Position numbers and translations under genes: made by a program
Part shown: positions 1 to 52,507 of the stretch, piece by piece
How the letters are laid out: each line of letters starts with the position of its first letter
Position numbering within the stretch: the first letter of the stretch is position 1
Sequence record: OR498728.1
Source: Escherichia phage ZX4221
Reading direction: 5' to 3' (one strand)
DNA length: 64,000 nt
The notes under the pieces: generated by a model
Database searches by the model: none
Told to the model about the DNA's origin: nothing
The model's input: only the letters and a program-made list of their open reading frames with translations

Positions 1-1100
1 GCCCCCTTAACATTTTCTTAACAATTTCTTAACAACCCCTACATAGTTATGCTTTTAAGGCACTTGTTAGCAACTTGTTAGCCCCTTGTTAAATATCTGT
101 TAAGACCACGTAAAAGCCTTGTAAGAGTCTTTAGCATAGCCTTTAAAGCCTCTGTAAAGCCCTATAAAGAGGTGTTTGTATAGTTGGGGTGTAATTACTA
201 GGAAGAGACTTAAAAGAGCTTACAAAGAGCTATAGAGAGCTTTTAAGAGGGCTATTTAGAGAATCACTAAGAGGGAAAGGGAACGATAAGAAAAGAGATA
301 GTGACCATGTTAATAGCTTGTTAAAAAGATTAAACACTTGTTAGGAACTTGTTAATTATCTTAACAAAATAACTCTTAAAAATTAACTTGTTAGCTCTTG
401 TTAGTCATCTGTTAAGACTCTGTAAAGTCTATGTATCAACTGTTAAGAACTTGTTACACCCTTGTTAGTTCTGTTAAGAATCTGTTAAGACCTCTGAAGA
501 GATGTTAAGAGGATGTAGTAGCTGTTAAGAGATTGTTAAGGATATTTTAAAATTCTGCAAAGTACTTGTAAGGGAGCTGTTAAGGGCTACCAAGCAGATA
601 TACATCTTCTACAGATATTTTTGAGTTCCTTCAAAGACCCTAAAAAATGACTTGATAGTCCTATTTTATAAAAATTTTAAAATTCTGAATAATTACCTAG
701 ACAGTATTCTAAAAATACAGGCATAAACAGGCTTATAAGATACCTTGTTAATACCGTGTTAGACCTTGTGAGATAAGGTCTGTAAAGATATTCCTGTTAA
801 GTTTGTTAAAACAGTCTATATAGAGGTTTAGTAATACCTAGTGAACACCTATAGAGGGTAACATAGCTGACATAGAGATTAAGAGGTGTATAGGTGCTTC
901 TAAGAGATTATAGAGAGGTGGTTAAGGTGATTGTATAGGTTGTTAAGAAGGCTTGTTAGAAGGCTTGTTAGAGGGCTATTTAGAAGGTTTATACAGAGGG
1001 CTATTAAGACCACTAGATAGATACTAAGATACTATATAGTACTATATAACTATATATATATATATATAGAGAGTAAGCTTAAGAAGGTTGTTAAGAAGGG
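1..1100. repeat. Iteron-like array of short (C/T)TGTTA(A/G) motifs, partly at 10-11 bp phasing; candidate origin or protein-binding array
   Basis: About 30 copies of CTTGTTAG/CTGTTAAG-type motifs read by eye (e.g. 65, 76, 87, 98 are 11 bp apart); second recurring motif TATAGAG(A/G)G; no ORF >=60 aa; window starts inside the region so its left edge is unknown. Confidence 0.55.
1051..1068. repeat. (TA)9 dinucleotide run, possible DNA unwinding element
   Basis: tatatatatatatatata seen directly, embedded in the motif array. Confidence 0.9.
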
Positions 1101-1157
1101 TAGATATTTTATTCACATATGATGGTGACCAAGAGGTTGGGACAACCGATAAAATTT

Positions 1158-1190
1158 TATAAAAATTAAAAAGCCCCCAATTAAGGAGGC
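1158..1190 (-). terminator. Rho-independent terminator ending the leftward operon
   Basis: On the minus strand GCCTCC-TTAATT-GGGGGC hairpin followed by TTTTTAATTTTT; lies just past the stop of CDS 1203..1796. Confidence 0.6.
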
Positions 1191-1202
1191 TCTTAAGATA
1201 TT

Positions 1203-9702: not shown

Positions 9703-9727
9703 GTTGACAAAGGACTTGACAAGGTGT
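9703..9727. promoter_or_regulatory. Conserved double TTGACAA motif (copy 1) in divergent switch region
   Basis: GTTGACAAAGGACTTGACAAGGTGT; near-identical copy at 52310..52334; spacing to any -10 is not canonical. Confidence 0.45.
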
Positions 9728-10306: not shown

Positions 10307-11722
10307 ATGAGCGAATTATTTAAACATGCGCACCTTCATGCAGGTCGAACTGAAAATGGTGCTGTAAACCATACTTCATCAATGTCTGCTCTGGTAGACT
10401 TCTACAAAGCCGCTGGCTCAAGCCGTAGCAATGTAGAAATCTTACCAGACCTGTTCTACAAAGCTTTGCGTGAGGATGTTGATGTTGCAGTTCGTATTTT
10501 ACTGCATATGCGAGATGTACGAGAAGGTATGGGTGAGCGTAAAGCTTTCCGAACTGTTTTACTTCAAGCGATTGAAGATAAGGTTTTAGAACCTACACAG
10601 GTTCTTCGCATTATGGATAAGATTGCAGAGCTTGGTCGTTTTGATGACTTCAAAATCTTCGTAGGTACTCGTTTTGAGACAGATGCCTTCAAACATTTAG
10701 AAGCAGCATTACTAGACCCTGCAACAGCAGGTTTAGCGGCTAAGTGGTTACCACGAGTAAAACCACGCCACAAACAGTTTGTAAAACGTTTCTGTAAGTT
10801 TGCAAACTTAAGTGAGAAGGAGTATCGCACACTGTTATCTGCACTGTCCGATACGGTTGAGCAAAAAATCTCTGCTAATGAGTTTGGTAAGATTGACTAC
10901 AGCAAGATTCCTTCACTCGCTGCTGCACGTTACCAAAAGCTCTTTAACCGTAAAGATGGTGAACGTTACAAAGCTTATATCGAGTCACTCTCAAAGGGTG
11001 AGGCTAAGATTAACGCTGGTGCTGTTTACCCATACGATGTGATTAAATCTATCAAGTATGGTAATGCAGGTGTTGCTAATGAGCAGTGGAAAGCACTACC
11101 AAACTGGATGGCAGAGGGTGAAAACATCTTGTGTATGACTGATGTTTCAAGCTCAATGTCTTGGGTGAATCTTGGTTCAATCACTGCCCTTGATATTGGC
11201 GTATCACTTGCCTTGTATGTAGCAGAACGCAATACAGGTTGCTTTAAGAATGAGTTAATGGTTTATTCAACAAACCCTCACTTCATCGAACTGAGTGGTG
11301 ATTTGAGAAACCGTCACCGTCAGGTAATGCGTCATGTTGAATATGGTTCAACTAACTTACAAGCAGCTTTTGACCGCATTCTTGAAATAGGTAAGAGAAA
11401 CAACTTGACTCAGAAAGATATGCCAAGTAAGCTTATTATCTTCTCTGATATGGAGTTTAATCAGGTTGATGGTGCAAATGGTCGTACAAACTTTGAAGCA
11501 ATTCAGAGTAAGTACAAAAAAGCTGGATACGAAATGCCACAACTAGTATTCTGGTACTTAGCAAACCGTAATGGTACTTGCGAAGTATCTGTTAAAGATA
11601 ATGGTGTAGCAATGGTATCAGGGTTCTCTCCAGCCACTTTAAAAGCTCTGCTTGGTGGTGAGAAGTTTGACCCAATCAACGTAATGCTCAAAGCAGTAAT
11701 GGTTGACCGTTACATCTGGTAA
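10307..11722 (+). CDS. vWA (MIDAS) domain protein, putatively Ro60/TROVE-like RNA-binding protein
   Basis: 471 aa; C-terminal half has MIDAS-like TDVSSSM ... GSTN ... FSDME; N-terminal TENGAV...ALVDFYKAAGSSR resembles the start of TROVE domains from memory; good RBS; gene is certain, TROVE assignment is inference. Confidence 0.6.
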   Translation: MSELFKHAHLHAGRTENGAVNHTSSMSALVDFYKAAGSSRSNVEILPDLFYKALREDVDVAVRILLHMRDVREGMGERKAFRTVLLQAIEDKVLEPTQVLRIMDKIAELGRFDDFKIFVGTRFETDAFKHLEAALLDPATAGLAAKWLPRVKPRHKQFVKRFCKFANLSEKEYRTLLSALSDTVEQKISANEFGKIDYSKIPSLAAARYQKLFNRKDGERYKAYIESLSKGEAKINAGAVYPYDVIKSIKYGNAGVANEQWKALPNWMAEGENILCMTDVSSSMSWVNLGSITALDIGVSLALYVAERNTGCFKNELMVYSTNPHFIELSGDLRNRHRQVMRHVEYGSTNLQAAFDRILEIGKRNNLTQKDMPSKLIIFSDMEFNQVDGANGRTNFEAIQSKYKKAGYEMPQLVFWYLANRNGTCEVSVKDNGVAMVSGFSPATLKALLGGEKFDPINVMLKAVMVDRYIW

Positions 11723-11886: not shown

Positions 11887-11963
11887 CTCTGTTTAGCTCA
11901 GCTTGGTAGAGCGTTCCGTTTGGGGCGGTAAGGCCGGAGGTTCAAGTCCTCCAACAGAGACCA
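11887..11963 (+). tRNA. tRNA-Pro (anticodon TGG)
   Basis: Hand-folded: acceptor CTCTGTT/AACAGAG, D-stem GCTC/GAGC, anticodon loop TTTGGGG, T-arm GGAGG-TTCAAGT-CCTCC, CCA encoded. Confidence 0.75.
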
Positions 11964-11970
11964 AATTAAT

Positions 11971-12048
11971 GTTCCAGTAGACAAAACGGTAAAGTCACCA
12001 CTCTTTCAAAGTGGATATTTGAGGGTTCAAATCCCTTCTGGAACGCCA
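11971..12048 (+). tRNA. tRNA-Glu (anticodon TTC)
   Basis: Acceptor GTTCCAG/CTGGAAC, anticodon stem CCACT/AGTGG with loop CTTTCAA, T-loop TTCAAAT, CCA encoded. Confidence 0.7.
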
Positions 12049-12055
12049 GTCTTGA

Positions 12056-12128
12056 CAGAAGACCAATTGCAGCAAACTTAATCTTATTCATCTGACACGA
12101 AATCGGACAAAGAAGAGATTTGGTCTGG
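12056..12128 (+). ncRNA. Stem-closed structured element A (CAGAAGACC ... GGTCTGG family), Y-RNA-like candidate
   Basis: 5' CAGAAGACCAA pairs with 3' TTGGTCTGG (7 bp); conserved 5' box CAGAAGACCnnnTnCAGCAA; inner hairpin AATCT/AGATT; directly follows tRNA-Glu. Confidence 0.4.
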
Positions 12129-12139
12129 TCATTAAGAAT

Positions 12140-12216
12140 TGCGGGTATAGAGAAAGGGCGTCTCACATGTCTCATTAGCATGGTATCGGCAGGTTCGACT
12201 CCTGCACCCGCCTCCA
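12140..12216 (+). tRNA. tRNA-Met (anticodon CAT), copy 1
   Basis: T-arm GCAGG-TTCGACT-CCTGC, acceptor TGCGGGT/ACCCGCC with mismatch at pair 1-72, anticodon loop CTCATTA; CCA encoded. Confidence 0.6.
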
Positions 12217-12222
12217 ATTTTG

Positions 12223-12283
12223 CAGAAGACCGTATTCAGCAACAAACTACTTTTTGCGGATAAAAGAAAAAAACACGGTCTGG
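12223..12283 (+). ncRNA. Stem-closed structured element B (same family)
   Basis: 5' CAGAAGACCGT pairs with 3' ACGGTCTGG (7 bp); same 5' box as element A. Confidence 0.4.
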
Positions 12284-12294
12284 CAATGTATTAA

Positions 12295-12371
12295 GGTTAG
12301 GAAGCACATAAGGTATGTGCGGTCGCCTGTTAAGCGAATGGCACAGGGTTCGAATCCCTGACTAACCGCCA
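12295..12371 (+). tRNA. tRNA-Asn (anticodon GTT)
   Basis: D-stem GCAC/GTGC, anticodon loop CTGTTAA, T-arm CAGGG-TTCGAAT-CCCTG, acceptor GGTTAGG/ACTAACC, CCA encoded. Confidence 0.7.
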
Positions 12372-12380
12372 AATTTAAAT

Positions 12381-12468
12381 GTGTCGTTATCCCGTAGATG
12401 GTAGCGGTGGGGACTGTAAATCCCTTGTCATTGAGACTCGGTAGGTTCGACTCCTACACGGCACACCA
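12381..12468 (+). tRNA. tRNA-Tyr (anticodon GTA), long variable arm
   Basis: 88 nt; acceptor GTGTCGT/ACGGCAC, anticodon stem GGGGA/TCCCT loop CTGTAAA, T-arm GTAGG-TTCGACT-CCTAC, CCA encoded. Confidence 0.7.
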
Positions 12469-12474
12469 AATAAA

Positions 12475-12552
12475 GGTTATGTAGTTTAATCTGGTTAAAA
12501 TACTCCCCTGTCACGGGAGATGATGAGGGTTCAAATCCCTTCGTAACCGCCA
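12475..12552 (+). tRNA. tRNA-Asp (anticodon GTC)
   Basis: Anticodon stem CTCCC/GGGAG perfect, loop CTGTCAC, T-loop TTCAAAT, acceptor GGTTATG/CGTAACC, CCA encoded. Confidence 0.75.
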
Positions 12553-12639
12553 AATTATAATAAGTATTTCAAGATGATGTTTTGAGAGGGCTATTTAGCC
12601 CCTCCCTTAAAGAGTTCTTACGAGTATTCTTTAAAGGAG

Positions 12640-12713
12640 CAGAAGACCAAATGCAGCAAGAATGTATGAAATTTCAAGCCAATTTAATTTTGAAAATTTA
12701 AACTTGGTCTGGC
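12640..12713 (+). ncRNA. Stem-closed structured element C (same family)
   Basis: 5' CAGAAGACCAA ... 3' TTGGTCTGG; inner hairpin AAATTTCAA/TTGAAATTT. Confidence 0.4.
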
Positions 12714-12725
12714 TCAACAAATTTA

Positions 12726-12857
12726 CAGAAGACCGTTTACAGCAAAACTTAAACAATCTATTTCTCCGGTAAAGAAAAGGCGAAGGTTCGATTCCTTCAC
12801 TCGGCAGATGTCGAGTTGGTGTAATGGTAGCACTTAAGATGATAAACAACGGTCTGG
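12726..12857 (+). ncRNA. Stem-closed structured element D enclosing a circularly permuted tRNA-like module; Y-RNA (YrlA-type) candidate
   Basis: Outer 8 bp stem AGACCGTT/AACGGTCT; inside, in order: anticodon-like arm TTTCT-CCGGTAA-AGAAA, T-arm GAAGG-TTCGATT-CCTTC, ACTCGGC-A-GAT-GTCGAGT acceptor hairpin, D-arm GTGT-AATGGTA-GCAC. Confidence 0.5.
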
Positions 12858-12860
12858 TAA

Positions 12861-12999
12861 TTATCTTTGTAGATAAGTTATTAAGCTTCCCTGTGAGTAT
12901 GCGACCACAAAGGTGAAAGGGTAGATTCTAGATTTAACCCGAAAAGACACATCGCTACAGACCTTAAGCAAGTCTGGGTAGCTTATCTACAAAGATAAT
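12861..12999 (+). ncRNA. Structured element bounded by a perfect 17 bp inverted repeat
   Basis: TTATCTTTGTAGATAAG (12861-77) and its exact reverse complement (12983-99) enclose ~105 nt with internal hairpins. Confidence 0.4.
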
Positions 13000-13004
13000 T
13001 TAAT

Positions 13005-13080
13005 GGAAGTGTAGCAGAATGGTGATGCGGCAGACTTTTAATCTGACAGGCGATGGGTTCGAATCCCTCCACTTCTACCA
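13005..13080 (+). tRNA. tRNA-Lys (anticodon TTT)
   Basis: Acceptor GGAAGTG/CACTTCT, anticodon loop CTTTTAA, T-loop TTCGAAT with imperfect T-stem ATGGG/CCCTC, CCA encoded. Confidence 0.6.
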
Positions 13081-13084
13081 ATAT

Positions 13085-13161
13085 GGTTCAGTCGCAGATA
13101 AGGTAATGCAGGGGTTTCATAAGCCCTATGAATGTGGGTTCGATTCCCATCTGAACCTCCA
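13085..13161 (+). tRNA. tRNA-Met (anticodon CAT), copy 2 (initiator, elongator or Ile-lysidine not resolved)
   Basis: Acceptor GGTTCAG/CTGAACC perfect, anticodon stem GGGGT/GCCCT loop TTCATAA, T-arm GTGGG-TTCGATT-CCCAT, CCA encoded. Confidence 0.7.
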
Positions 13162-13162
13162 A

Positions 13163-13238
13163 GCTGGTATAGTTAAGAAGGTTATAACACTCCCCTGATA
13201 AGGGAACATCGGTGGTTCGATTCCACCTACCAGTACCA
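13163..13238 (+). tRNA. tRNA-Ile (anticodon GAT)
   Basis: D-stem GTTA/TAAC, anticodon loop CTGATAA, T-arm GGTGG-TTCGATT-CCACC, acceptor GCTGGTA/TACCAGT, CCA encoded. Confidence 0.7.
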
Positions 13239-13253
13239 ATTCCAATAAAGTTG

Positions 13254-13282
13254 TTGACATTGAGATGTGACCACTTTATAGT
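13254..13282 (+). promoter_or_regulatory. Internal sigma70-like promoter within tRNA array
   Basis: TTGACA 13254-59, 17 nt spacer, TATAGT 13277-82. Confidence 0.55.
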
Positions 13283-13574
13283 AACTAAAATACTTCATAA
13301 TATGTATAATTCAAACACCAATACATGAGTGTTAGACGTAACACAATGTGGGGAAATTTGTTGTACATATTCTGAATAGTTTTCGTTGCGTAGCGTCTAT
13401 TTTGCAAACTTAAAATAAATGCAAACGACAATGTTTTTCTGGCAGTAGCTTGATAGGCTAAACACCAGTGAGGTCTTCCAACCCCTCATCAAAGAATTTG
13501 GCGTACTCGCCCACGGTATGATTAATAAGGTGGGCATCTTTAAGGGCTTTTTAAGAGAGTCTTTAAAGATTAAT

Positions 13575-13651
13575 GCACCCTTAGTTCAACTGGACAGAGC
13601 AAATGACTTCTAATCATTGAGTTACAGGTTCGAATCCTGTAGGGTGTGCCA
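13575..13651 (+). tRNA. tRNA-Arg (anticodon TCT)
   Basis: Anticodon stem AATGA/TCATT perfect, loop CTTCTAA, T-arm ACAGG-TTCGAAT-CCTGT, acceptor GCACCCT/AGGGTGT, CCA encoded. Confidence 0.75.
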
Positions 13652-13793
13652 AATAGTTAGCAGATTGCTTAGACGACCTTATCGGGTCTCCGTGTAAGGA
13701 GGTGGTCTGTATCTCATGTTTTCCAGAACATGTAAATAATCTGAGAAGGGGCTTTACAGTGTTGCGAAAATACGGTAAGCTTCGAATTATAGT

Positions 13794-13876
13794 GTGGGAC
13801 GATGTTAAGACTCTAAGGCATGAGCAACGGCCTCCAAAACCGTTTCAAAGGGGTTCAACTCCTCCGTCCCATGCCA
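13794..13876 (+). tRNA. tRNA-Trp-like (anticodon CCA) with atypical extended D-region
   Basis: Acceptor GTGGGAC/GTCCCAT, anticodon arm ACGGC-CTCCAAA-ACCGT, T-loop TTCAACT, CCA encoded; about 8 extra nt between acceptor and D-stem, so canonical fold not achieved by hand. Confidence 0.4.
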
Positions 13877-13889
13877 AAGTCTTATTAGG

Positions 13890-13977
13890 GGTAGGTAGCG
13901 GCTAATGGTAGCCAAACTGTCTTGAAAACAGTTGCCACTGTAGAGATACGGTGAGGGTTCGACTCCTTTACTTACCG
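13890..13977 (+). tRNA. tRNA-Ser (anticodon TGA), long variable arm, CCA not encoded
   Basis: Acceptor GGTAGGT/ACTTACC, 3 bp D-stem, anticodon stem ACTGT/ACAGT perfect with loop CTTGAAA, ~20 nt variable arm, T-loop TTCGACT. Confidence 0.6.
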
Positions 13978-14235
13978 CCTAATAAGATTTTACACCGTCC
14001 ATGCTTGCTCGCATTTTCGGTTTATCCCTCGTGTATTGTCGTACACACTGATAAAGCACCTAGTAGGTGTCACGGAGAAGAGATAATATCAAGCTCTCCA
14101 AAGGTTCTAGTCACCGGATTGAACAAGACTATGCAAAGACCTAAATAGGTCTTTTTAGAGGGCTTCTAAGGTTATTACAGCTTGTTGTGGAACCTTGTTG
14201 CTTAGGTTCTTAGAAGTTCTCTAAAAAGATTTAAT

Positions 14236-14312
14236 GCACCTATAGCCCAACTGGTAGAGGCAGCAGACTTAGAATCTGCTCAGTGTGAGTTCGAATCTCT
14301 CTAGGTGTACCA
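14236..14312 (+). tRNA. tRNA-Leu-type anticodon TAG, class I (short variable arm) architecture
   Basis: 77 nt; acceptor GCACCTA/TAGGTGT, anticodon stem GCAGA/TCTGC perfect, loop CTTAGAA, 5 nt variable loop, discriminator A, CCA encoded. Confidence 0.6.
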
Positions 14313-14319
14313 AATTAAT

Positions 14320-14395
14320 GCAGGTGTAGCAAAATGGTTATGCGGCTGACTCTTAATCAGTAAGACGATGGGTTCAATTCCCTCCACCTGTACCA
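14320..14395 (+). tRNA. tRNA-Lys (anticodon CTT)
   Basis: Paralog of tRNA-Lys(TTT): acceptor GCAGGTG/CACCTGT, anticodon loop CTCTTAA, T-loop TTCAATT with same imperfect T-stem, CCA encoded. Confidence 0.6.
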
Positions 14396-14401
14396 AACAT
14401 T

Positions 14402-14477
14402 GGGGATGTAGTTTACATGGTTAAAACATAAGTTTTGCAAACTTAAGTACAGGGTTCAATTCCCTGCTTCTCCACCA
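14402..14477 (+). tRNA. tRNA-Ala (anticodon TGC)
   Basis: G3:U70 wobble pair present in acceptor stem; anticodon stem TAAGT/ACTTA perfect, loop TTTGCAA; T-arm CAGGG-TTCAATT-CCCTG; CCA encoded. Confidence 0.75.
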
Positions 14478-14483
14478 ATTAGT

Positions 14484-14558
14484 GCATCCATAGTTTAAAC
14501 GGGAAAATTACAGTCTTCCAAACTGAGGTTGAGGGTTCGATTCCCTCTGGATGCTCCA
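14484..14558 (+). tRNA. tRNA-Gly (anticodon TCC)
   Basis: Acceptor GCATCCA/TGGATGC perfect, anticodon loop CTTCCAA, T-arm GAGGG-TTCGATT-CCCTC, CCA encoded. Confidence 0.75.
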
Positions 14559-14565
14559 AATTAAT

Positions 14566-14641
14566 GCTCCTATCGTATAATTGGCTATTACGGTTGCCTT
14601 GTAAGCAACTTATCAGGGTTCGAATCCTTGTGGGAGCACCA
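14566..14641 (+). tRNA. tRNA-Thr (anticodon TGT)
   Basis: Anticodon stem GTTGC/GCAAC perfect, loop CTTGTAA, T-arm CAGGG-TTCGAAT-CCTTG, acceptor GCTCCTA/TGGGAGC, CCA encoded. Confidence 0.75.
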
Positions 14642-14645
14642 ATTC

Positions 14646-14731
14646 AGAGGTCAAGTGAAAGACCGCTGGTGTCAACTGAAGACCGTAACAAATTCCACGG
14701 AGTTGAGTTAGCGGCACAACTTCAGACCTCT
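14646..14731 (+). ncRNA. Structured element E, divergent relative of the CAGAAGACC family
   Basis: Outer stem AGAGGTC/GACCTCT; contains CTGAAGACCGTAACAAATT resembling the family 5' box; nested stems CCGCT/AGCGG and CTGAAG/CTTCAG. Confidence 0.3.
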
Positions 14732-14736
14732 TTCAT

Positions 14737-14811
14737 ACTCGCTTAGTTTATATGGTAAAACATCACCCTTACAAGATGGAGAAAAAGGTTCAAGTCCTTT
14801 AGTGAGTACCA
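14737..14811 (+). tRNA. tRNA-Val (anticodon TAC)
   Basis: D-stem GTTT/AAAC, anticodon loop CTTACAA, T-arm AAAGG-TTCAAGT-CCTTT, acceptor ACTCGCT/AGTGAGT, CCA encoded. Confidence 0.7.
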
Positions 14812-14812
14812 T

Positions 14813-14890
14813 GTTCCAGTATCCCAATTGGCAGAGGATGCAAGCTCAAACCTTGTACTAGTGACGGTTCGAATCCGTCTTGGAACACCA
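14813..14890 (+). tRNA. tRNA-Leu-type anticodon CAA, class I (short variable arm) architecture
   Basis: 78 nt; acceptor GTTCCAG/TTGGAAC, anticodon stem GCAAG/CTTGT, loop CTCAAAC, ~6 nt variable loop, T-arm GACGG-TTCGAAT-CCGTC, discriminator A, CCA encoded. Confidence 0.55.
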
Positions 14891-14895
14891 ATTTT

Positions 14896-14971
14896 GCAGG
14901 ATTAGTTCAAATGGATAGAGCAACAGTCTACGAAGCTGTTAATAGGGGTTCGAATCCCTTATCCTGCGCCA
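14896..14971 (+). tRNA. tRNA-Arg (anticodon ACG)
   Basis: Acceptor GCAGGAT/ATCCTGC perfect, D-stem GTTC/GAGC, anticodon loop CTACGAA, T-loop TTCGAAT, CCA encoded. Confidence 0.75.
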
Positions 14972-14989
14972 GATAAGTAAGAGGAATTT

Positions 14990-15232
14990 ATGCAAACATT
15001 AATCGTCGTTGAACATGAAAATTCCAATAGTATTGAGTTTGTAAGGGTTCCCACTATAGATACCCACATTTTCTTGAAAGTCGGATGGGGATGTGACCCA
15101 ATAAAAGTAGAAAATTTTATTGGTCATTACTTTGGTGGAAGACAACTTAAAAGCGTCAATTTTGAGACAATGTTACCAGAAAACTCAGAAACAAATAATA
15201 ATGTTTATCTCCTTACGAGGATTAGACAATGA
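14990..15232 (+). CDS. hypothetical protein inside tRNA array (80 aa)
   Basis: AAGAGGA Shine-Dalgarno 6 nt before ATG; stop overlaps next start (ATGA). Confidence 0.45.
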   Translation: MQTLIVVEHENSNSIEFVRVPTIDTHIFLKVGWGCDPIKVENFIGHYFGGRQLKSVNFETMLPENSETNNNVYLLTRIRQ

Positions 15233-15786
15233 GATATCTGAAGTATGCTTCATGGATTTTCCTAGCTTTGTTAGACCCATTGGCAGCAACCTTAGCAGTT
15301 ATCTTAGCACCCTTTGTAGTCCCATTCTACAGTGAGAAGAAAGGCCATCTACCTTTTGGATTCAGATGGATGGAGACATATGACAACCCGATTGATGGCG
15401 ATGAAGGTCATATGAAACGATGGGCTAAGATTAGAAAGATTGGTAAGCTCGGTGTCTATATGCAGAGAGTTGGCTGGCTCTGGAGAAACAAAGCTTATAA
15501 CTTCTCTTACCATGTGTTAGGAAGAGATGTAAAAGATGTTACTAAGTGGAAAGGTAATATCAACGTGAGTTCTGACCCTGAAGATAATCAGACAGGTTAT
15601 CTCCTAATGTGGAACAGTAATGCTTGGGGATTATTTGCTTTTATCCCATCAATTAAAATCTTTGGTAAACAATTCTACTGGAGAATTTATGTTGGATGGA
15701 AACTTAAAAGTGTTGTCCCAGAAGAAAGAGCATTCTCAAGGGAAAGAGTTATGTTGGCATTCTTTATTCATCCACTGAGAAAGTAA
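15229..15786 (+). CDS. hypothetical protein with hydrophobic N-terminus inside tRNA array (185 aa)
   Basis: ORF-track ORF; translationally coupled to 14990..15232; N-terminal WIFLALLDPLAATLAVILAPFVVPF looks membrane-associated. Confidence 0.5.
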   Translation: MRYLKYASWIFLALLDPLAATLAVILAPFVVPFYSEKKGHLPFGFRWMETYDNPIDGDEGHMKRWAKIRKIGKLGVYMQRVGWLWRNKAYNFSYHVLGRDVKDVTKWKGNINVSSDPEDNQTGYLLMWNSNAWGLFAFIPSIKIFGKQFYWRIYVGWKLKSVVPEERAFSRERVMLAFFIHPLRK

Positions 15787-15794
15787 AGATTTAA

Positions 15795-15870
15795 AGGGGA
15801 TTAGTTTACAAGGTTAAAACCTCGGTCTTTGAAATCGAAGAAGTTGGTTCAATTCCAACATCCCCCGCCA
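15795..15870 (+). tRNA. tRNA-Gln (anticodon TTG)
   Basis: Anticodon stem TCGGT/ATCGA, loop CTTTGAA, T-arm GTTGG-TTCAATT-CCAAC, A1-C72 mismatch at top of acceptor, discriminator G, CCA encoded. Confidence 0.65.
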
Positions 15871-15872
15871 AT

Positions 15873-15951
15873 GCTCCATTACTCCAATTGGCAGAGAGGC
15901 CAGACTTAAAATCTGTGTTATGTATCGGTTCGAATCCGATATGGAGTACCA
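15873..15951 (+). tRNA. tRNA-Leu-type anticodon TAA, class I (short variable arm) architecture
   Basis: 79 nt; acceptor GCTCCAT/ATGGAGT, anticodon stem CAGA/TCTG, loop CTTAAAA, ~7 nt variable loop, T-arm ATCGG-TTCGAAT-CCGAT perfect, discriminator A, CCA encoded. Confidence 0.55.
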
Positions 15952-15956
15952 AATTT

Positions 15957-16032
15957 AGCGGTATAGCATAACTGGCAATGCAGCAGTCTCTGAAGCTGTC
16001 TTATTAAGGTTCAAATCCTTATGCCGCTGCCA
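15957..16032 (+). tRNA. tRNA-Gln (anticodon CTG)
   Basis: Acceptor AGCGGTA/TGCCGCT, D-stem GCAT/ATGC, anticodon loop CTCTGAA, T-arm TAAGG-TTCAAAT-CCTTA, discriminator G, CCA encoded. Confidence 0.65.
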
Positions 16033-16063
16033 CTTCTAAGGGTTCTTACGAGAGTCCTTAAAT

Positions 16064-16139
16064 GTGGCCTTATCATAAATGGTAATGACCCATGCTGTGA
16101 ACATGGTCTATACGGGTTCAAATCCCGTAGGTCACCCCA
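16064..16139 (+). tRNA. tRNA-His (anticodon GTG)
   Basis: Anticodon stem CCATG/CATGG perfect, loop CTGTGAA, D-stem TCAT/ATGA, T-arm ACGGG-TTCAAAT-CCCGT, discriminator C; no encoded G-1 (preceding base is T). Confidence 0.7.
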
Positions 16140-16145
16140 ATTTAT

Positions 16146-16221
16146 AGTCCAAGTAGCTTATATGGTTAAAGCGCGTGTCTGAAAAACATGAGAAGAGGGT
16201 TCAAATCCCACTGGACTACCA
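16146..16221 (+). tRNA. tRNA-Phe (anticodon GAA), irregular acceptor/linker geometry
   Basis: Anticodon stem CGTGT/ACATG, loop CTGAAAA, D-stem GCTT/AAGC, T-loop TTCAAAT; acceptor pairs only as 6 bp or with a 4 nt linker to the D-stem; boundaries uncertain. Confidence 0.55.
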
Positions 16222-16237
16222 ATTTCAAAGGTGCTTA

Positions 16238-16972
16238 ATGAAAGAGATGACAGAACAAGGTAAGGAGATTTTTAATCTCTTAAAAACCGGTAGAGGGTTT
16301 TCTAATCCCCTTATTACTGGTGCAGCAGTTCTCGGTGGAACCGTAGCTGCCTCTACATCACTTGTAAGCTCTATTAGCTCTGTAACAGACCCTACAATAA
16401 AGGATAAGCTTATTGCTGCTGGACTTACAACAGTTCTGCTTAACAGCTTTACAACGAGTCTGACAAGCACTACATCAACCACTAAGACACTGACAGATTA
16501 TGGTCAAAAGTCCATTGATGAGTTTTCATCACGTATGCAGGTAGCAAAAGGATATTCCAATGTTATGGGTGCAGCAGGAGAACAAGTCGGTTGTACACCA
16601 TTTAGTGGTATTATGGGTGTTGCTACAGAATATGGTCAAAAAGCTATTGACACAATTAACAGTGCACTAGATGGTGTTAATGATGTGTTAAGTGACTTAC
16701 AAGATGCTATTGATGAAGGTCTTGATACTATTTCTGATTTAGCTAACCAAGCTGTTAGCAAGATTAATGAAGGTATCTCGAAGATTACAGCTTATGCAGA
16801 TGAAGTTGTGCAGATGATTGAAGAAGAAGCTGCCCTTATTGCAGAGTACCTTAAAACGAATATCAATGGGTTCTTAGCAGGTATCTTACCAGACTGGTTT
16901 GATGATGCTTGTAAAACTGGTGTAATTGATACTATTGCAACACCAGAAATGAAGAACGCATTACAGAAATAA
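16238..16972 (+). CDS. hypothetical Ser/Thr-rich protein (244 aa)
   Basis: ORF-track ORF trimmed to first ATG with RBS (AAAGG) that does not overlap tRNA-Phe. Confidence 0.5.
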   Translation: MKEMTEQGKEIFNLLKTGRGFSNPLITGAAVLGGTVAASTSLVSSISSVTDPTIKDKLIAAGLTTVLLNSFTTSLTSTTSTTKTLTDYGQKSIDEFSSRMQVAKGYSNVMGAAGEQVGCTPFSGIMGVATEYGQKAIDTINSALDGVNDVLSDLQDAIDEGLDTISDLANQAVSKINEGISKITAYADEVVQMIEEEAALIAEYLKTNINGFLAGILPDWFDDACKTGVIDTIATPEMKNALQK

Positions 16973-16973
16973 T

Positions 16974-17066
16974 GGAAGATTAACCCTAAAAGGTAAGGGA
17001 GCAGTTTGCTAAACTGCCAGTAGCTGAGAAATCGGTGTACCAGTTCAAGTCTGGTATCTTCCTCCA
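16974..17066 (+). tRNA. tRNA-Ser (anticodon GCT), long variable arm
   Basis: 93 nt; acceptor GGAAGAT/ATCTTCC perfect, anticodon stem GCAGT/ACTGC perfect, loop TTGCTAA, T-arm ACCAG-TTCAAGT-CTGGT, CCA encoded. Confidence 0.75.
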
Positions 17067-17070
17067 ATTT

Positions 17071-17146
17071 GAATCCGTGACAGAAATGGCTATGTGCCTG
17101 TCTGCAAAACAGGTTTATAAGGGTTCGAGTCCCTTCGGATTCTCCA
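17071..17146 (+). tRNA. tRNA-Cys (anticodon GCA)
   Basis: Acceptor GAATCCG/CGGATTC perfect, anticodon stem CCTGT/ACAGG perfect, loop CTGCAAA, T-arm AAGGG-TTCGAGT-CCCTT, CCA encoded. Confidence 0.75.
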
Positions 17147-17368: not shown

Positions 17369-17569
17369 ATGAGCGAGACCGTTTATAAAGAACTTTATGA
17401 AGCTAATAAGAAGCTAGAATTTATGCAGAACACTATCATGGCAATTGCAGACAGATTGTCTGTAGCAACAGGTATTGATATCAAAGAAGCCTCTATGGAT
17501 GCACTTCTTGATGCTGTTGATGCAAAGTTCGAAGTTAAGAAAGAAGAGACTGCTACAGACTCTGAATAA
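17369..17569 (+). CDS. hypothetical small protein upstream of large terminase (66 aa)
   Basis: ORF-track ORF with GGAGAAA RBS; too small to call small terminase with confidence. Confidence 0.45.
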   Translation: MSETVYKELYEANKKLEFMQNTIMAIADRLSVATGIDIKEASMDALLDAVDAKFEVKKEETATDSE

Positions 17570-17590
17570 TTCTATTTGCGGAGGTGCTTA

Positions 17591-19192
17591 ATGGACTTAA
17601 ATGCTGTTAAGCAGAAGCGAGTGGAAGATGTTAGGAAAGTCCTAGCTGGAGAGTTGGGGCTTTCTGATGAAGTAAAAGAAATTATCAAATCATTCGGTAA
17701 AGACCCCTCTAAATTCCTTCCAACTCAAATTCTGACTTTATTAAGATACACACCAGACCAAGTTAGACTTATCTTCAAATTGATGACTGATAAGAACTAT
17801 GTAGCCCCTCAGCCGGGTTCTCAAGAGGTCTTTTTAAATACTAATGCTGACTTGGTTCTCTATGGTGGTGCTGCTGGTGCTGGTAAAACTGCTGCATTGT
17901 TAATGGACTCTTTAAGGTTTATTGAAGACCCTAACTATAATGCTGTATATTTCCGTCGAAATACAACACAGTTACAAGGTGGTTTGTGGCCTGCTGCAAA
18001 GAAACTATTTGGTAAGTTTGGTGGGGTTCCTCACGAGCAGAAGATGACTATCACATTCCCTTCTGGGGCAACTATTAAGTTCACCTATCTAGAACTTGAA
18101 AAGCACGCTGAAGGTCATCAGGGTATTGAATACTCAGCTATCTACTTTGACGAAGGTACACACTTCTCTGCTTCACAGATTTCATACCTACAGACCCGTC
18201 TACGTTCTGGTGCTGAAGGTGATTCATACATGAAGATTTCTATGAACCCAGATAGAGACCACTTCATTTATGATTGGGTAGAGCCATTCTTAGATGAAGA
18301 AGGTTACCCAGACCCTGAGAAGTGCGGTCGTATTCGTTGGTATGTTATGAATGATGGTGTGATGGTTTCTGATTGGGAAAGAGACAAGATTCTTGAAATG
18401 TTCCCTCTTGAGATTCCCCAGACATACACCTTCATCTCTGGTACGATTGATGATAACCCAATTCTTGACTTCTTAGAACCTAAATATCGTGGTAAGTTGG
18501 AAAACAACACACCTGTAAACGTTGCAAGACTTCGTTTCGGTAACTGGAAGGCTCGTGCAGAAGGTTCAAACTATTGGCAAAGACAATGGTGTGAGATTGT
18601 TGATTCACTCCCAGAAGATGTGTTTGATGTCAGAGCATGGGACTTAGCAGCGACTTTACCATCTGAAATTAACCCTAATCCAGACTGGACAGCGGGTGTT
18701 AAGATGGGTAAATCTAAAAAAGACGGTTGCTATTATATCATTGATGTAGTAAGATTTAGAGATAGACCCTCTGGAGTCGAAACACAAATTAATTTGACTG
18801 CTGAAAGTGACGGTAAGCGAACTGGTATTTTTATCCCTCAAGACCCAGGCGCTGCTGGTAAATCCTATGCAACATCCCTCATCAGGAAACTTGCCGAGAA
18901 AGGTTATCGCGCAAGAGCTAAACCAACAAATAAAGATAAAGTTACCCGCTTTGCGGGATTTTCTGCTGCTTCTGAAGCTGGACTTGTAAAAGTCTTGAGA
19001 GGTAGTTGGAACGAAGCTTACTTTCAAGAACTTGAAGGTTTTTGTGGTGATGGTAAAACTAAAGATGACCAAGTGGATGCTACCAGCGATGCTTTCAACA
19101 GTCTTAACGAAGTTAAATTATTCAAGCCACCATCAATGGGTGCTCACACAGACTTAGTGAGAGGAAACCCATACGAGGGGCTTAGACGTTGA
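17591..19192 (+). CDS. terminase large subunit
   Basis: Walker A-like LVLYGGAAGAGKT near N-terminus; size and position ahead of portal; start set to ATG after GGAGGT RBS. Confidence 0.85.
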   Translation: MDLNAVKQKRVEDVRKVLAGELGLSDEVKEIIKSFGKDPSKFLPTQILTLLRYTPDQVRLIFKLMTDKNYVAPQPGSQEVFLNTNADLVLYGGAAGAGKTAALLMDSLRFIEDPNYNAVYFRRNTTQLQGGLWPAAKKLFGKFGGVPHEQKMTITFPSGATIKFTYLELEKHAEGHQGIEYSAIYFDEGTHFSASQISYLQTRLRSGAEGDSYMKISMNPDRDHFIYDWVEPFLDEEGYPDPEKCGRIRWYVMNDGVMVSDWERDKILEMFPLEIPQTYTFISGTIDDNPILDFLEPKYRGKLENNTPVNVARLRFGNWKARAEGSNYWQRQWCEIVDSLPEDVFDVRAWDLAATLPSEINPNPDWTAGVKMGKSKKDGCYYIIDVVRFRDRPSGVETQINLTAESDGKRTGIFIPQDPGAAGKSYATSLIRKLAEKGYRARAKPTNKDKVTRFAGFSAASEAGLVKVLRGSWNEAYFQELEGFCGDGKTKDDQVDATSDAFNSLNEVKLFKPPSMGAHTDLVRGNPYEGLRR

Positions 19193-43912: not shown

Positions 43913-44242
43913 TTAATCTGCCAGCCTTAAATTAAAATTAACACCAAATTTTTCGCATACTTCCAACATATACTCAAGGGAGACATTACCAGTGAGGTGG
44001 ATTATGTTGGATACACGAGCCTGAGAGATACCACAAATTTTAGCAACTTGCTCTTGGGAAAGACCTCTGGATTTAATCTCTCTCTTAAAACGATGTGCAA
44101 CGAAATCTCTCATTTCGTCTACATCCATTGGACAAACATAACTCTCCATTTCAGCCTCTCTGTCAGCCTCCCAATCATCTTGTGGAGCATAAGGGTCAAA
44201 AACCTCATTCATCTTTCTTCTTCCGTTTGCGTGAAGTATCAA
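43913..44242 (-). CDS. helix-turn-helix DNA-binding protein (XRE-like)
   Basis: GLSQEQVAKICGISQARVSNI is a typical HTH signature. Confidence 0.6.
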   Translation of the reverse strand: MILHANGRRKMNEVFDPYAPQDDWEADREAEMESYVCPMDVDEMRDFVAHRFKREIKSRGLSQEQVAKICGISQARVSNIIHLTGNVSLEYMLEVCEKFGVNFNLRLAD

Positions 44243-52250: not shown

Positions 52251-52309
52251 TTTTACTCCCTCTAAAATCATTAACCTCATACATTACTGCAAAAAATTAT
52301 AAAAAGCAA

Positions 52310-52334
52310 GTTGACAATGTACTTGACAAGGTGT
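52310..52334. promoter_or_regulatory. Conserved double TTGACAA motif (copy 2) in divergent switch region
   Basis: GTTGACAATGTACTTGACAAGGTGT; matches 9703..9727 at 22 of 25 positions. Confidence 0.45.
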
Positions 52335-52422
52335 TAATCTTTGCGAAGTGGGTTTTTACTTAAAAGGTTACTTAACAGTTTAACTATACAGATACTTTAA
52401 AACTCTTAAAAGATTATTTAAT

Positions 52423-52464
52423 AGCTTTTAAAAAGCTTTAAAGTATAACGTATAGAATACGTTA
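52423..52464. promoter_or_regulatory. Two operator-like palindromes upstream of the rightward replication module
   Basis: AGCTTTTAAAAAGCT (perfect 15 bp palindrome) and TAACGTA-TAGAA-TACGTTA (7 bp arms). Confidence 0.35.
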
Positions 52465-52507
52465 AGATAAAAGATTAAAACTTAATAGTTACTTAAAAGA
52501 GGCTTAC

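Follow-up and report, generated by a model that had tools for sequence, protein, structure and literature searches.

A phased TGTTA array in the probable terminal repeat and packaging region of the Felix O1-like phage ZX4221

What is the role of 1.2 kb of phage DNA that is filled with short motifs repeated at intervals of one helical turn? The question is raised by bases 1-1200 of a 64,000-nucleotide stretch of Escherichia phage ZX4221 (record OR498728.1), the whole of which we refer to as the window. An original prediction made from the sequence had described these bases as a candidate replication origin or packaging/regulatory region. The packaging half of that description was supported, in that the region very probably comprises a direct terminal repeat (DTR) and the subterminal flank of a Felix O1-like genome, whereas the origin reading for which the prediction argued was not. 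We consider that the region is the terminal repeat and the packaging or end-formation region of the phage, with functional binding arrays, at a probability of about 0.7.

The terminal repeat and its boundaries

Judged by its sequence matches, the window is that of a Felix O1-like myovirus (Felixounavirus): bases 1-1200 match 255 phage records, all of them Felix O1-like, with a top identity of 93.8%. In records opened elsewhere, the homologous non-coding DNA occupies ~1.65-1.8 kb between two converging gene blocks, which correspond to the Felix O1 transcriptons 97-131/1-23 and 40-24 in the same layout (PMC3185647). When IMG/VR was scanned with the neighbouring gene, just close relatives were recovered, at 77-94% identity, and no new distant lineages.

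Six records (D4, H12, E9, Pr103Blw, HP1 of the Mooglevirus group, and NBEco005) have the homologue of window base 1 as their first base. The first 581 bases of D4 equal its last 581 bases at 100% identity, and in E9, Pr103Blw, HP1 and NBEco005 the sequence is found at two places per record. The annotated DTRs of Pr103Blw (1-581) and HP1 (repeat_region 1-570) equal the distance from one boundary to the other. Published mapping covers several of these relatives: PhageTerm returned a DTR for D4, E9, H12 and I14.1 (PMC11737134), a 581-bp short direct terminal repeat for Pr103Blw (PMC8303462) and a 613-bp DTR for Ro111lw (PMC6454146), and a 608-bp DTR was obtained for UAB_Phi87 by Bal31 digestion and run-off sequencing (PMC4837284).

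The repeats of the mapped relatives span the DNA from GCCCCCTT(A/T)ACA, which begins at the left cut, to the right cut between GGGCTACC and AAGCAGATATAC, with the span in UAB_Phi87 being 6 bp longer than published. Both boundaries occur in the window and match those mapped in relatives, the left one as GCCCCCTTAACA at 1-12 and the right one as GGGCTACC/AAGCAGATATAC at 584-603 (a slash marks the cut), so that the repeat equivalent is 1-591. Boundary sequences and repeat lengths were compared across 33 loci from GenBank and IMG/VR (Table 1). A cut-site word common to both boundaries (TGCTW/G or GCTA(G)CC) was considered and rejected, being too short and not conserved in Sf19, SUSP1 and phiEa21-4.

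The large terminase subunit of the lineage (TerL, 17576-19192, + strand) matches phrog_979 with an E-value of 1e-233 and has the domains Terminase_6N and Terminase_6C; it is the nuclease that would be expected to cut at the DTR boundaries. Taken together, these comparisons lead us to identify the DTR and the chromosome terminus with high confidence. In concatemers, the region is a ~1.7 kb junction between two converging operons, insulated from transcription. The view that the region runs on past the window edge holds in part: it applies to the concatemer or circular map, on which ~480 more non-coding bases follow leftward, but not to virion DNA, in which position 1 would be the end of the chromosome.

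The phased array and its conservation

The motif content that had been described for bases 1-1200 was confirmed by counting. Where ~30 copies of (C/T)TGTTA(A/G) had been claimed, we found 27 exact YTGTTAR copies (24 on the + strand and 3 on the - strand), compared to ~1.4 that the motif density of the remaining 62.8 kb would predict. The 5-nt core TGTTA/TAACA occurs 28 + 5 times, and the extended consensus of the motif is cTTGTTAAGA. Successive cores on the + strand (n=27 spacings) are 9-12 bp apart in 15 instances, 11 of which are exactly 11 bp, and the distances between pairs of cores, taken up to 120 bp, show a phase of 10.25 bp (Rayleigh R 0.65, against a null 95th percentile of 0.25, with 0 of 2000 random placements matching it), in agreement with the 10-11 bp helical-turn phasing that had been noticed. 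Across all 64 kb, base periodicity of 10-11.5 bp peaks at 1-600, with a power of 8.7 versus a median of 1.9. The second motif, TATAGAG(A/G)G, has four copies, every one within 1-1200 and none in the rest of the window; its shorter form TATAGAG has five, compared to 0.04 expected in the region. The 18-bp (TA)9 tract is likewise present at the place given in Table 1.

The region had also been called non-coding, and this is correct. No open reading frame (ORF) in 1-1200 is longer than 37 aa, and no conserved ORF or hidden small gene was found among 13 homologous regions, in which the short ORFs shift in position and strand. The last ~35 bases are not part of the array but hold the terminator of the leftward operon. 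Rfam covariance models run at a permissive threshold gave nothing relevant, just Phe_leader over this terminator (26 bits, below the gathering score of 55). A sigma-70 promoter scan gave 7 sites versus 4.9 +/- 2.4 expected and thus no evidence of promoters, and no IHF, Fis, PhoB or OmpR-type consensus sequence was matched in the region.

Conservation is concentrated on the cores of the repeat. In an alignment of 13 relatives, TGTTA/TAACA cores inside the DTR are 98% conserved versus 84% at other DTR positions, and in three Mooglevirus genomes the values are 95% for DTR cores versus 70% for non-core positions (permutation p<0.0002). The seven YTGTTAR copies in the flank were conserved no better than background (64% versus 73% in Mooglevirus). 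Since aligners favour repeats, we also counted without alignment in 8 taxa from three genera, and found 18-23 plus 2-6 cores per DTR compared to 1.2-4.2 expected. The best phasing was 10.25 bp in all 8 taxa, and all share one cluster pattern, in which three inverted copies are followed by four direct ones, a gap and then ~17 direct copies, with ~24 TGTTA(A/G) cores. On the orientation map, the motif-free gap in the centre of the DTR recurs in all taxa; in the window, Tandem Repeats Finder (TRF) reports periods of 10-12 within this central part at 140-169 and 203-262.

The array also extends to more distant phages. Suspvirus phiSUSP1 has kept both boundaries and the array, with its neighbouring protein being just 56% identical to that of the window; mistaenkt, a Suspvirus related to phiSUSP1, has 47% GC (Olsen preprint). 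Erwinia phage phiEa21-4 (Kolesnikvirus), which is otherwise unalignable, carries 14 + 7 cores in the syntenic converging gap together with the 12-mer AAGCAGATATAC, which forms the outer side of the right boundary. In all, the array was found in four genera of Ounavirinae. The flanks of the putative phiEa21-4 repeat (locus L017, 16570-16920) hold other motifs, with ~12 copies of CTTCTAA on the left and four of CTTCTCA on the right. Subterminal motifs have thus changed between genera, and the TGTTAAG array inside the repeat has not.

Across the 33 loci, DTR lengths range from 567 to 659 bp and are quantised at ~11 bp (R 0.72-0.78, p<0.0002), falling into classes of 569/570, 580/581, 591/592, 601-603, 613/614, 633 and 651-659 bp, which implies the gain and loss of entire units. 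At either end of the DTR, the outermost copy is the 9-mer TGTTAAGGG; the two are inverted to each other and lie 3 and 5 nt from the cuts, and they are the only exact copies of TGTTAAGGG in the region, one of them on the - strand at 4-12. By these comparative measures the cores are under purifying selection, and it is very likely that the arrays are functional protein-binding sites.

A direct terminal repeat with a subterminal region is already documented for Felixounavirus. The DTRs of UAB_Phi87, Pr103Blw, Ro111lw and D4 are homologous to the one described here (86-95% identity), with the same boundaries and the same place between converging operons, and ZX4221 differs from them by its 591-bp version and its longer (TA)n. 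The literature that we found on Felix O1-like DTRs does not describe the TGTTAAGA array inside the repeat, its phasing and conservation, the invariance of the boundaries or the grouping of lengths into 11-bp classes; these features, and the small-terminase candidate considered below, appear to be undescribed.

Candidate binders and competing explanations

In the model that we propose, the phased cores would serve as a cooperative binding array, occupied on one face of the DNA, for the terminase holoenzyme at the concatemer junction. Terminase would hold or wrap the junction DNA, the array would position TerL, the large subunit would cut at both invariant boundaries, and a T7-type duplication of the repeat would take place during packaging. 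We put the chance that terminase is the binder of the array at a little under even.

A small terminase is not annotated in Felix O1-like genomes (PMC4837284). The gene that opens the packaging and morphogenesis operon encodes a DUF5681 protein (Table 1), which is 59% identical in phiEa21-4. In the window, TerL follows 7.3 kb downstream of this gene, after a Ro60-like gene and 26 tRNAs; in five of the five distant metagenomic contexts examined, DUF5681 is linked to a large-terminase gene. Four of these contexts have it immediately upstream of, or overlapping, the large-terminase gene (the downstream gene in one of the contexts, L046, being a weak TerL match at E ~4e-6), and in the fifth just two HNH endonuclease genes separate it from the terminase gene. 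The invariant N-terminal motif of the family is KGxSGNPxGRPxGSxN, and its best PDB profile match is the AT-hook of HMG-I(Y), with PsGRPKGSrNk aligned to PRGRPKGSKNK at a weak E-value of 0.18. An AlphaFold model of the protein consists of a disordered arm and a helical hairpin (mean pLDDT 70). NCBIfam and PHROGs give no functional name for DUF5681, and a PDB sequence search with the protein matched no small terminase; a single faint match to a small terminase was obtained in PHROGs (E 0.009). Going by the gene neighbourhood of its distant homologues, the DUF5681 protein is a likely candidate for the small terminase that has been "missing" from Felix O1-like phages. Two ORFs upstream of TerL, one of 66 aa (17369-17569) and one with DUF7217 (16175-16972), were set aside for this role because both are acidic, helical or Ser/Thr-rich, and without a DNA-binding signature.

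The most speculative step of the model is that the DUF5681 protein would be the reader of the array, with its AT-hook-like arms inserted at the TTAA in the middle of every unit. We offer this protein as the specific binder only tentatively and regard it as rather unlikely. More doubtful is the complete arrangement, in which the DTR would be a phased "landing strip" where an oligomeric DUF5681 small terminase places its arms in the TTAA of TGTTAAGA units one turn apart and TerL acts on two inverted TGTTAAGGG-N3-5-cut sites. If true, the landing-strip arrangement would represent a recognition mode not described for terminases and would explain the failure to find the small subunit in Felix O1-like phages.

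Arrays of this general kind are known beside other packaging sites. The R sites of lambda cosB and the pacL/pacR sites of SPP1 consist of several phased sites beside a nuclease cut, some of them inverted, and their presumed role is to wrap DNA around an oligomer of the small subunit; these small-terminase sites number 3-7 and are recognised by helix-turn-helix domains, and lambda depends on IHF. The predicted binding sites in the ZX4221 repeat are similarly phased beside a cut site, with some inverted, but they differ in having more copies and no IHF consensus. As for the putative reader, the DUF5681 motif agrees with the AT-hook of HMGA (HMG-I/Y; PDB 2EZD) at 9 of 12 positions, although the match is weak and DUF5681 is a phage protein that is predicted to have a helical hairpin core.

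A functional parallel is T7, which also has a short exact DTR with a one-orientation heptamer repeated around it: in the T7 sequence, 13 copies of CCTAAAG in one orientation lie from -106 to +332 around the 160-bp repeat. There is, however, no sequence homology to the ZX4221 array, and the T7 copies are mostly outside the repeat with a 13-bp spacing, whereas the ~24 copies here are mostly inside it, are spaced at ~11 bp and include an inverted triplet at the left end. The resemblance is functional and not homologous. The T7 junction together with a phage origin suffices for plasmid packaging, according to the account of Chung & Hinkle 1990 given in PMC13236587. T7 packaging is coupled to the phage's own RNA polymerase (PMC3276506), and Felix O1 encodes no RNA polymerase (PMC3185647).

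Several points weigh against reading the region as a terminus with terminase-binding arrays. The end assignment derives from exact homology to mapped relatives, and the right end of this phage's chromosome lies outside the window. In UAB_Phi87, the boundary-to-boundary distance is 614 bp, 6 bp above the published 608. One phiEa21-4-like phage "appeared" headful in PhageTerm (PMC6256631), and DTR packaging may therefore not be general across the whole subfamily. T7 tolerates most insertions near its genome ends (bioRxiv 10.1101/2024.10.10.617714), so that comparable arrays in T7 are not proven essential; for the terminal region of Bas63, the PhageMaP paper reports nothing. With respect to DUF5681, gene neighbourhood is the sole basis of the putative small-terminase assignment, the AT-hook match is short, Foldseek of the model against PDB gave no match below E 4.6, and no motif array was present within +/-4 kb of the DUF5681 genes on five distant contigs.

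One alternative is that a protein other than terminase binds the array for a different terminus function; it might protect the ends, silence the junction or pair the repeats so that concatemers can form. The conserved, phased, one-face layout requires a binder without identifying it, and two kinds of candidate can be named, a phage DNA binder, for instance the HTH_3 protein (43913-44242), or a nucleoid protein of the host; all four genera infect Enterobacterales, so a shared host factor is possible. The HTH_3 regulator is encoded in the window and contains the sole conventional DNA-binding domain among the 31 ORFs scanned against Pfam. However, the region lacks the consensus sequences of the host proteins listed above and has one DnaA box, and the outermost motif copies adjoin the invariant cut sites directly, a link between the array and the formation of the ends. 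We consider both this alternative function and these candidate binders quite unlikely. The HTH_3 gene itself, on the - strand, encodes a 109-aa Cro-C1-type regulator (phrog_1373) and belongs to a nucleotide-metabolism operon.

A replication origin, whether instead of or besides a terminus function, is decidedly unlikely. Under this explanation, the phased repeats would be initiator iterons and the AT-rich DNA an unwinding element. Phased repeats do occur here with AT-rich DNA, including the conserved block at 661-690 and a DnaA-box match at 1109, and in T7-type phages secondary origins are located close to the left end. Nevertheless, the (TA)9 tract that had been taken together with the phased repeats as an origin signature is strain-specific, with (TA)3-5 in 12 of 13 relatives, and the units, ~24 in number and each 11 bp long with a core of 5-8 bp, do not resemble iterons, which are 17-22 bp long, typically number 3-7 and lie by an initiator gene. 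There is one DnaA box rather than a cluster, and neither an IHF nor a Fis consensus is present. The replication genes are located at ~41-56 kb, i.e. 40-55 kb away, and the genes that flank the array have no assigned function; the polymerase and primase/helicase genes instead flank another AT-rich divergent region (52281-52507, 24.5% GC) with tandem TTGACA promoters. Finally, the terminal repeat in which the array sits is cut at its ends. The original prediction had named virion ends at this place, with the motifs forming a terminal repeat, as what would speak against an origin, and this arrangement is present in close relatives. GC skew was rejected as an origin marker because it tracks gene orientation, and with it the direction of transcription, throughout the window.

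A minisatellite without function, arising by slippage in freely varying non-coding DNA, would fit the differing copy numbers of (TA)n and of the 12-bp unit (940-987) and the variation of DTR length in ~11 bp steps, but is highly improbable given that the cores are conserved far above their spacers across genera, that the cluster pattern is retained and that the array persists in phiEa21-4 amid unalignable surroundings.

A terminal and packaging role, with functional binding arrays, is thus the reading that we prefer, and it has practical consequences. Felix O1-like phages are widely used in Salmonella typing, biocontrol and therapy, and also as an engineering chassis (Bas63). Recognising the non-coding block as a chromosome end would fix where these genomes should be opened and which DNA engineered or rebooted genomes must keep, and it would account for assembly artefacts at this locus. 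The array, the cut sites and the 11-bp length classes make up a defined cis-element with which to study the recognition and duplication of short terminal repeats, largely an open question outside T7, and the DUF5681 candidate provides a testable answer to the "missing small terminase" of Ounavirinae.

The subterminal flank and other features of the window

The features of the region are collected in Table 1. Within the flank, conserved blocks are interleaved with variable repeats in the 13 relatives. The AT-rich block at 661-690, the best conserved of the flank, has no sigma-70 promoter match, and the TATAGAG copies at 819 and 1065 are conserved across genera.

Table 1. Positions of features in bases 1-1200 and of the small-terminase candidate, numbered from the first base of the window; a slash marks a cut.
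Feature	Position	Strand	Remarks
DTR equivalent	1-591		Position 1 would be the left virion end, by homology to mapped relatives
Left DTR boundary /GCCCCCTTAACA	1-12	+	Preceded in concatemers by ...GTAAAWGYTA; invariant save one A/T position in 33 loci of three genera
Three inverted motif copies, 11-bp period	7-35	-	TTAACA at 7-12; CTTAACAA at 17-24 and 28-35; kept in 11-12 of 13 relatives
Four direct YTGTTAR copies, 11-bp period	64-103	+	Starts at 64, 75, 86 and 97
Central DTR without TGTTA cores	104-307		Other 10-12-bp units, of TAAAG and AAGAGCT types
Main array	308-586	+	16 TGTTA cores on + plus one inverted copy at 361-367; spacing in multiples of ~10-11 bp
Right DTR boundary TGTTAAGGGCTACC/AAGCAGATATAC	578-603	+	Cut between 591 and 592; invariant in 33 loci
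Subterminal non-coding flank	592-1165		Unique sequence adjoining the left DTR; 13-relative alignment
AT-rich block CTATTTTATAAAAATTTTAAAATTCTGAAT	661-690		97% identity in 13 relatives, 90% in Mooglevirus
TATAGAG copies	819-1071	+	At 819, 850, 909 and 1065; fifth copy at 231, inside the DTR
12-bp tandem repeat TTGTTAGAAGGC, ~4 copies	940-987	+	TRF; copy number varies by whole units among relatives
(TA)9 microsatellite	1051-1068		(TA)3-5 in 12 of 13 relatives
Single DnaA-box consensus match TTATTCACA	1109-1117	+	0.08 expected per 1.2 kb; not strictly conserved in Mooglevirus
Intrinsic terminator of the leftward operon	1169-1194	-	10-bp stem with 5 GC pairs, then a T run; annotated terminator in relatives
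Candidate small terminase subunit, DUF5681, 123 aa	9854-10225	+	Pfam PF18932, 54 bits; AT-hook-like N-terminal arm

The flank on the other side of the DTR, at the right genome end, was seen in Felix O1 (locus L010, 2035-2500) and its homologues. It contains four copies of CTCTATA, the reverse complement of the TATAGAG found at 819-1065, which means that the subterminal motifs share one orientation when read inward from either virion end. The same flank holds two conserved terminator hairpins and a conserved GCCCATAACCCGAAAGGGAAGGGCAA element.

Two variable tracts of the left flank, the TTGTTAGAAGGC repeat at 940-987 and (TA)n, differ in copy number between otherwise close relatives. From its length in relatives, the long (TA)9 is an expansion specific to this phage. 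Both tracts could be used as strain-typing markers, and both are likely sources of assembly errors.

Elsewhere in the window, GATC has 0 matches in all 64 kb, compared to ~186 expected from dinucleotide-preserving shuffles, which suggests strong selection against Dam, MutH or GATC-restriction sites. Both divergent intergenic regions hold an identical tandem pair of -35-like boxes (GTTGACAA..ACTTGACAAGGTGT), directed rightward at 9704-9721 and 52311-52328 (+ strand), and each pair is followed by an AT-rich leader with CTTAAAAG-type words. The host polymerase is likely to transcribe both rightward operons mainly from these pairs. Lastly, a gene for a 471-aa Ro60-like RNA-binding protein (phrog_850; 10307-11722, + strand) is directly upstream of the 26-tRNA cluster at 11887-17146, and some of these "tRNAs" may be Y-RNA-like partners (PhageMaP preprint).

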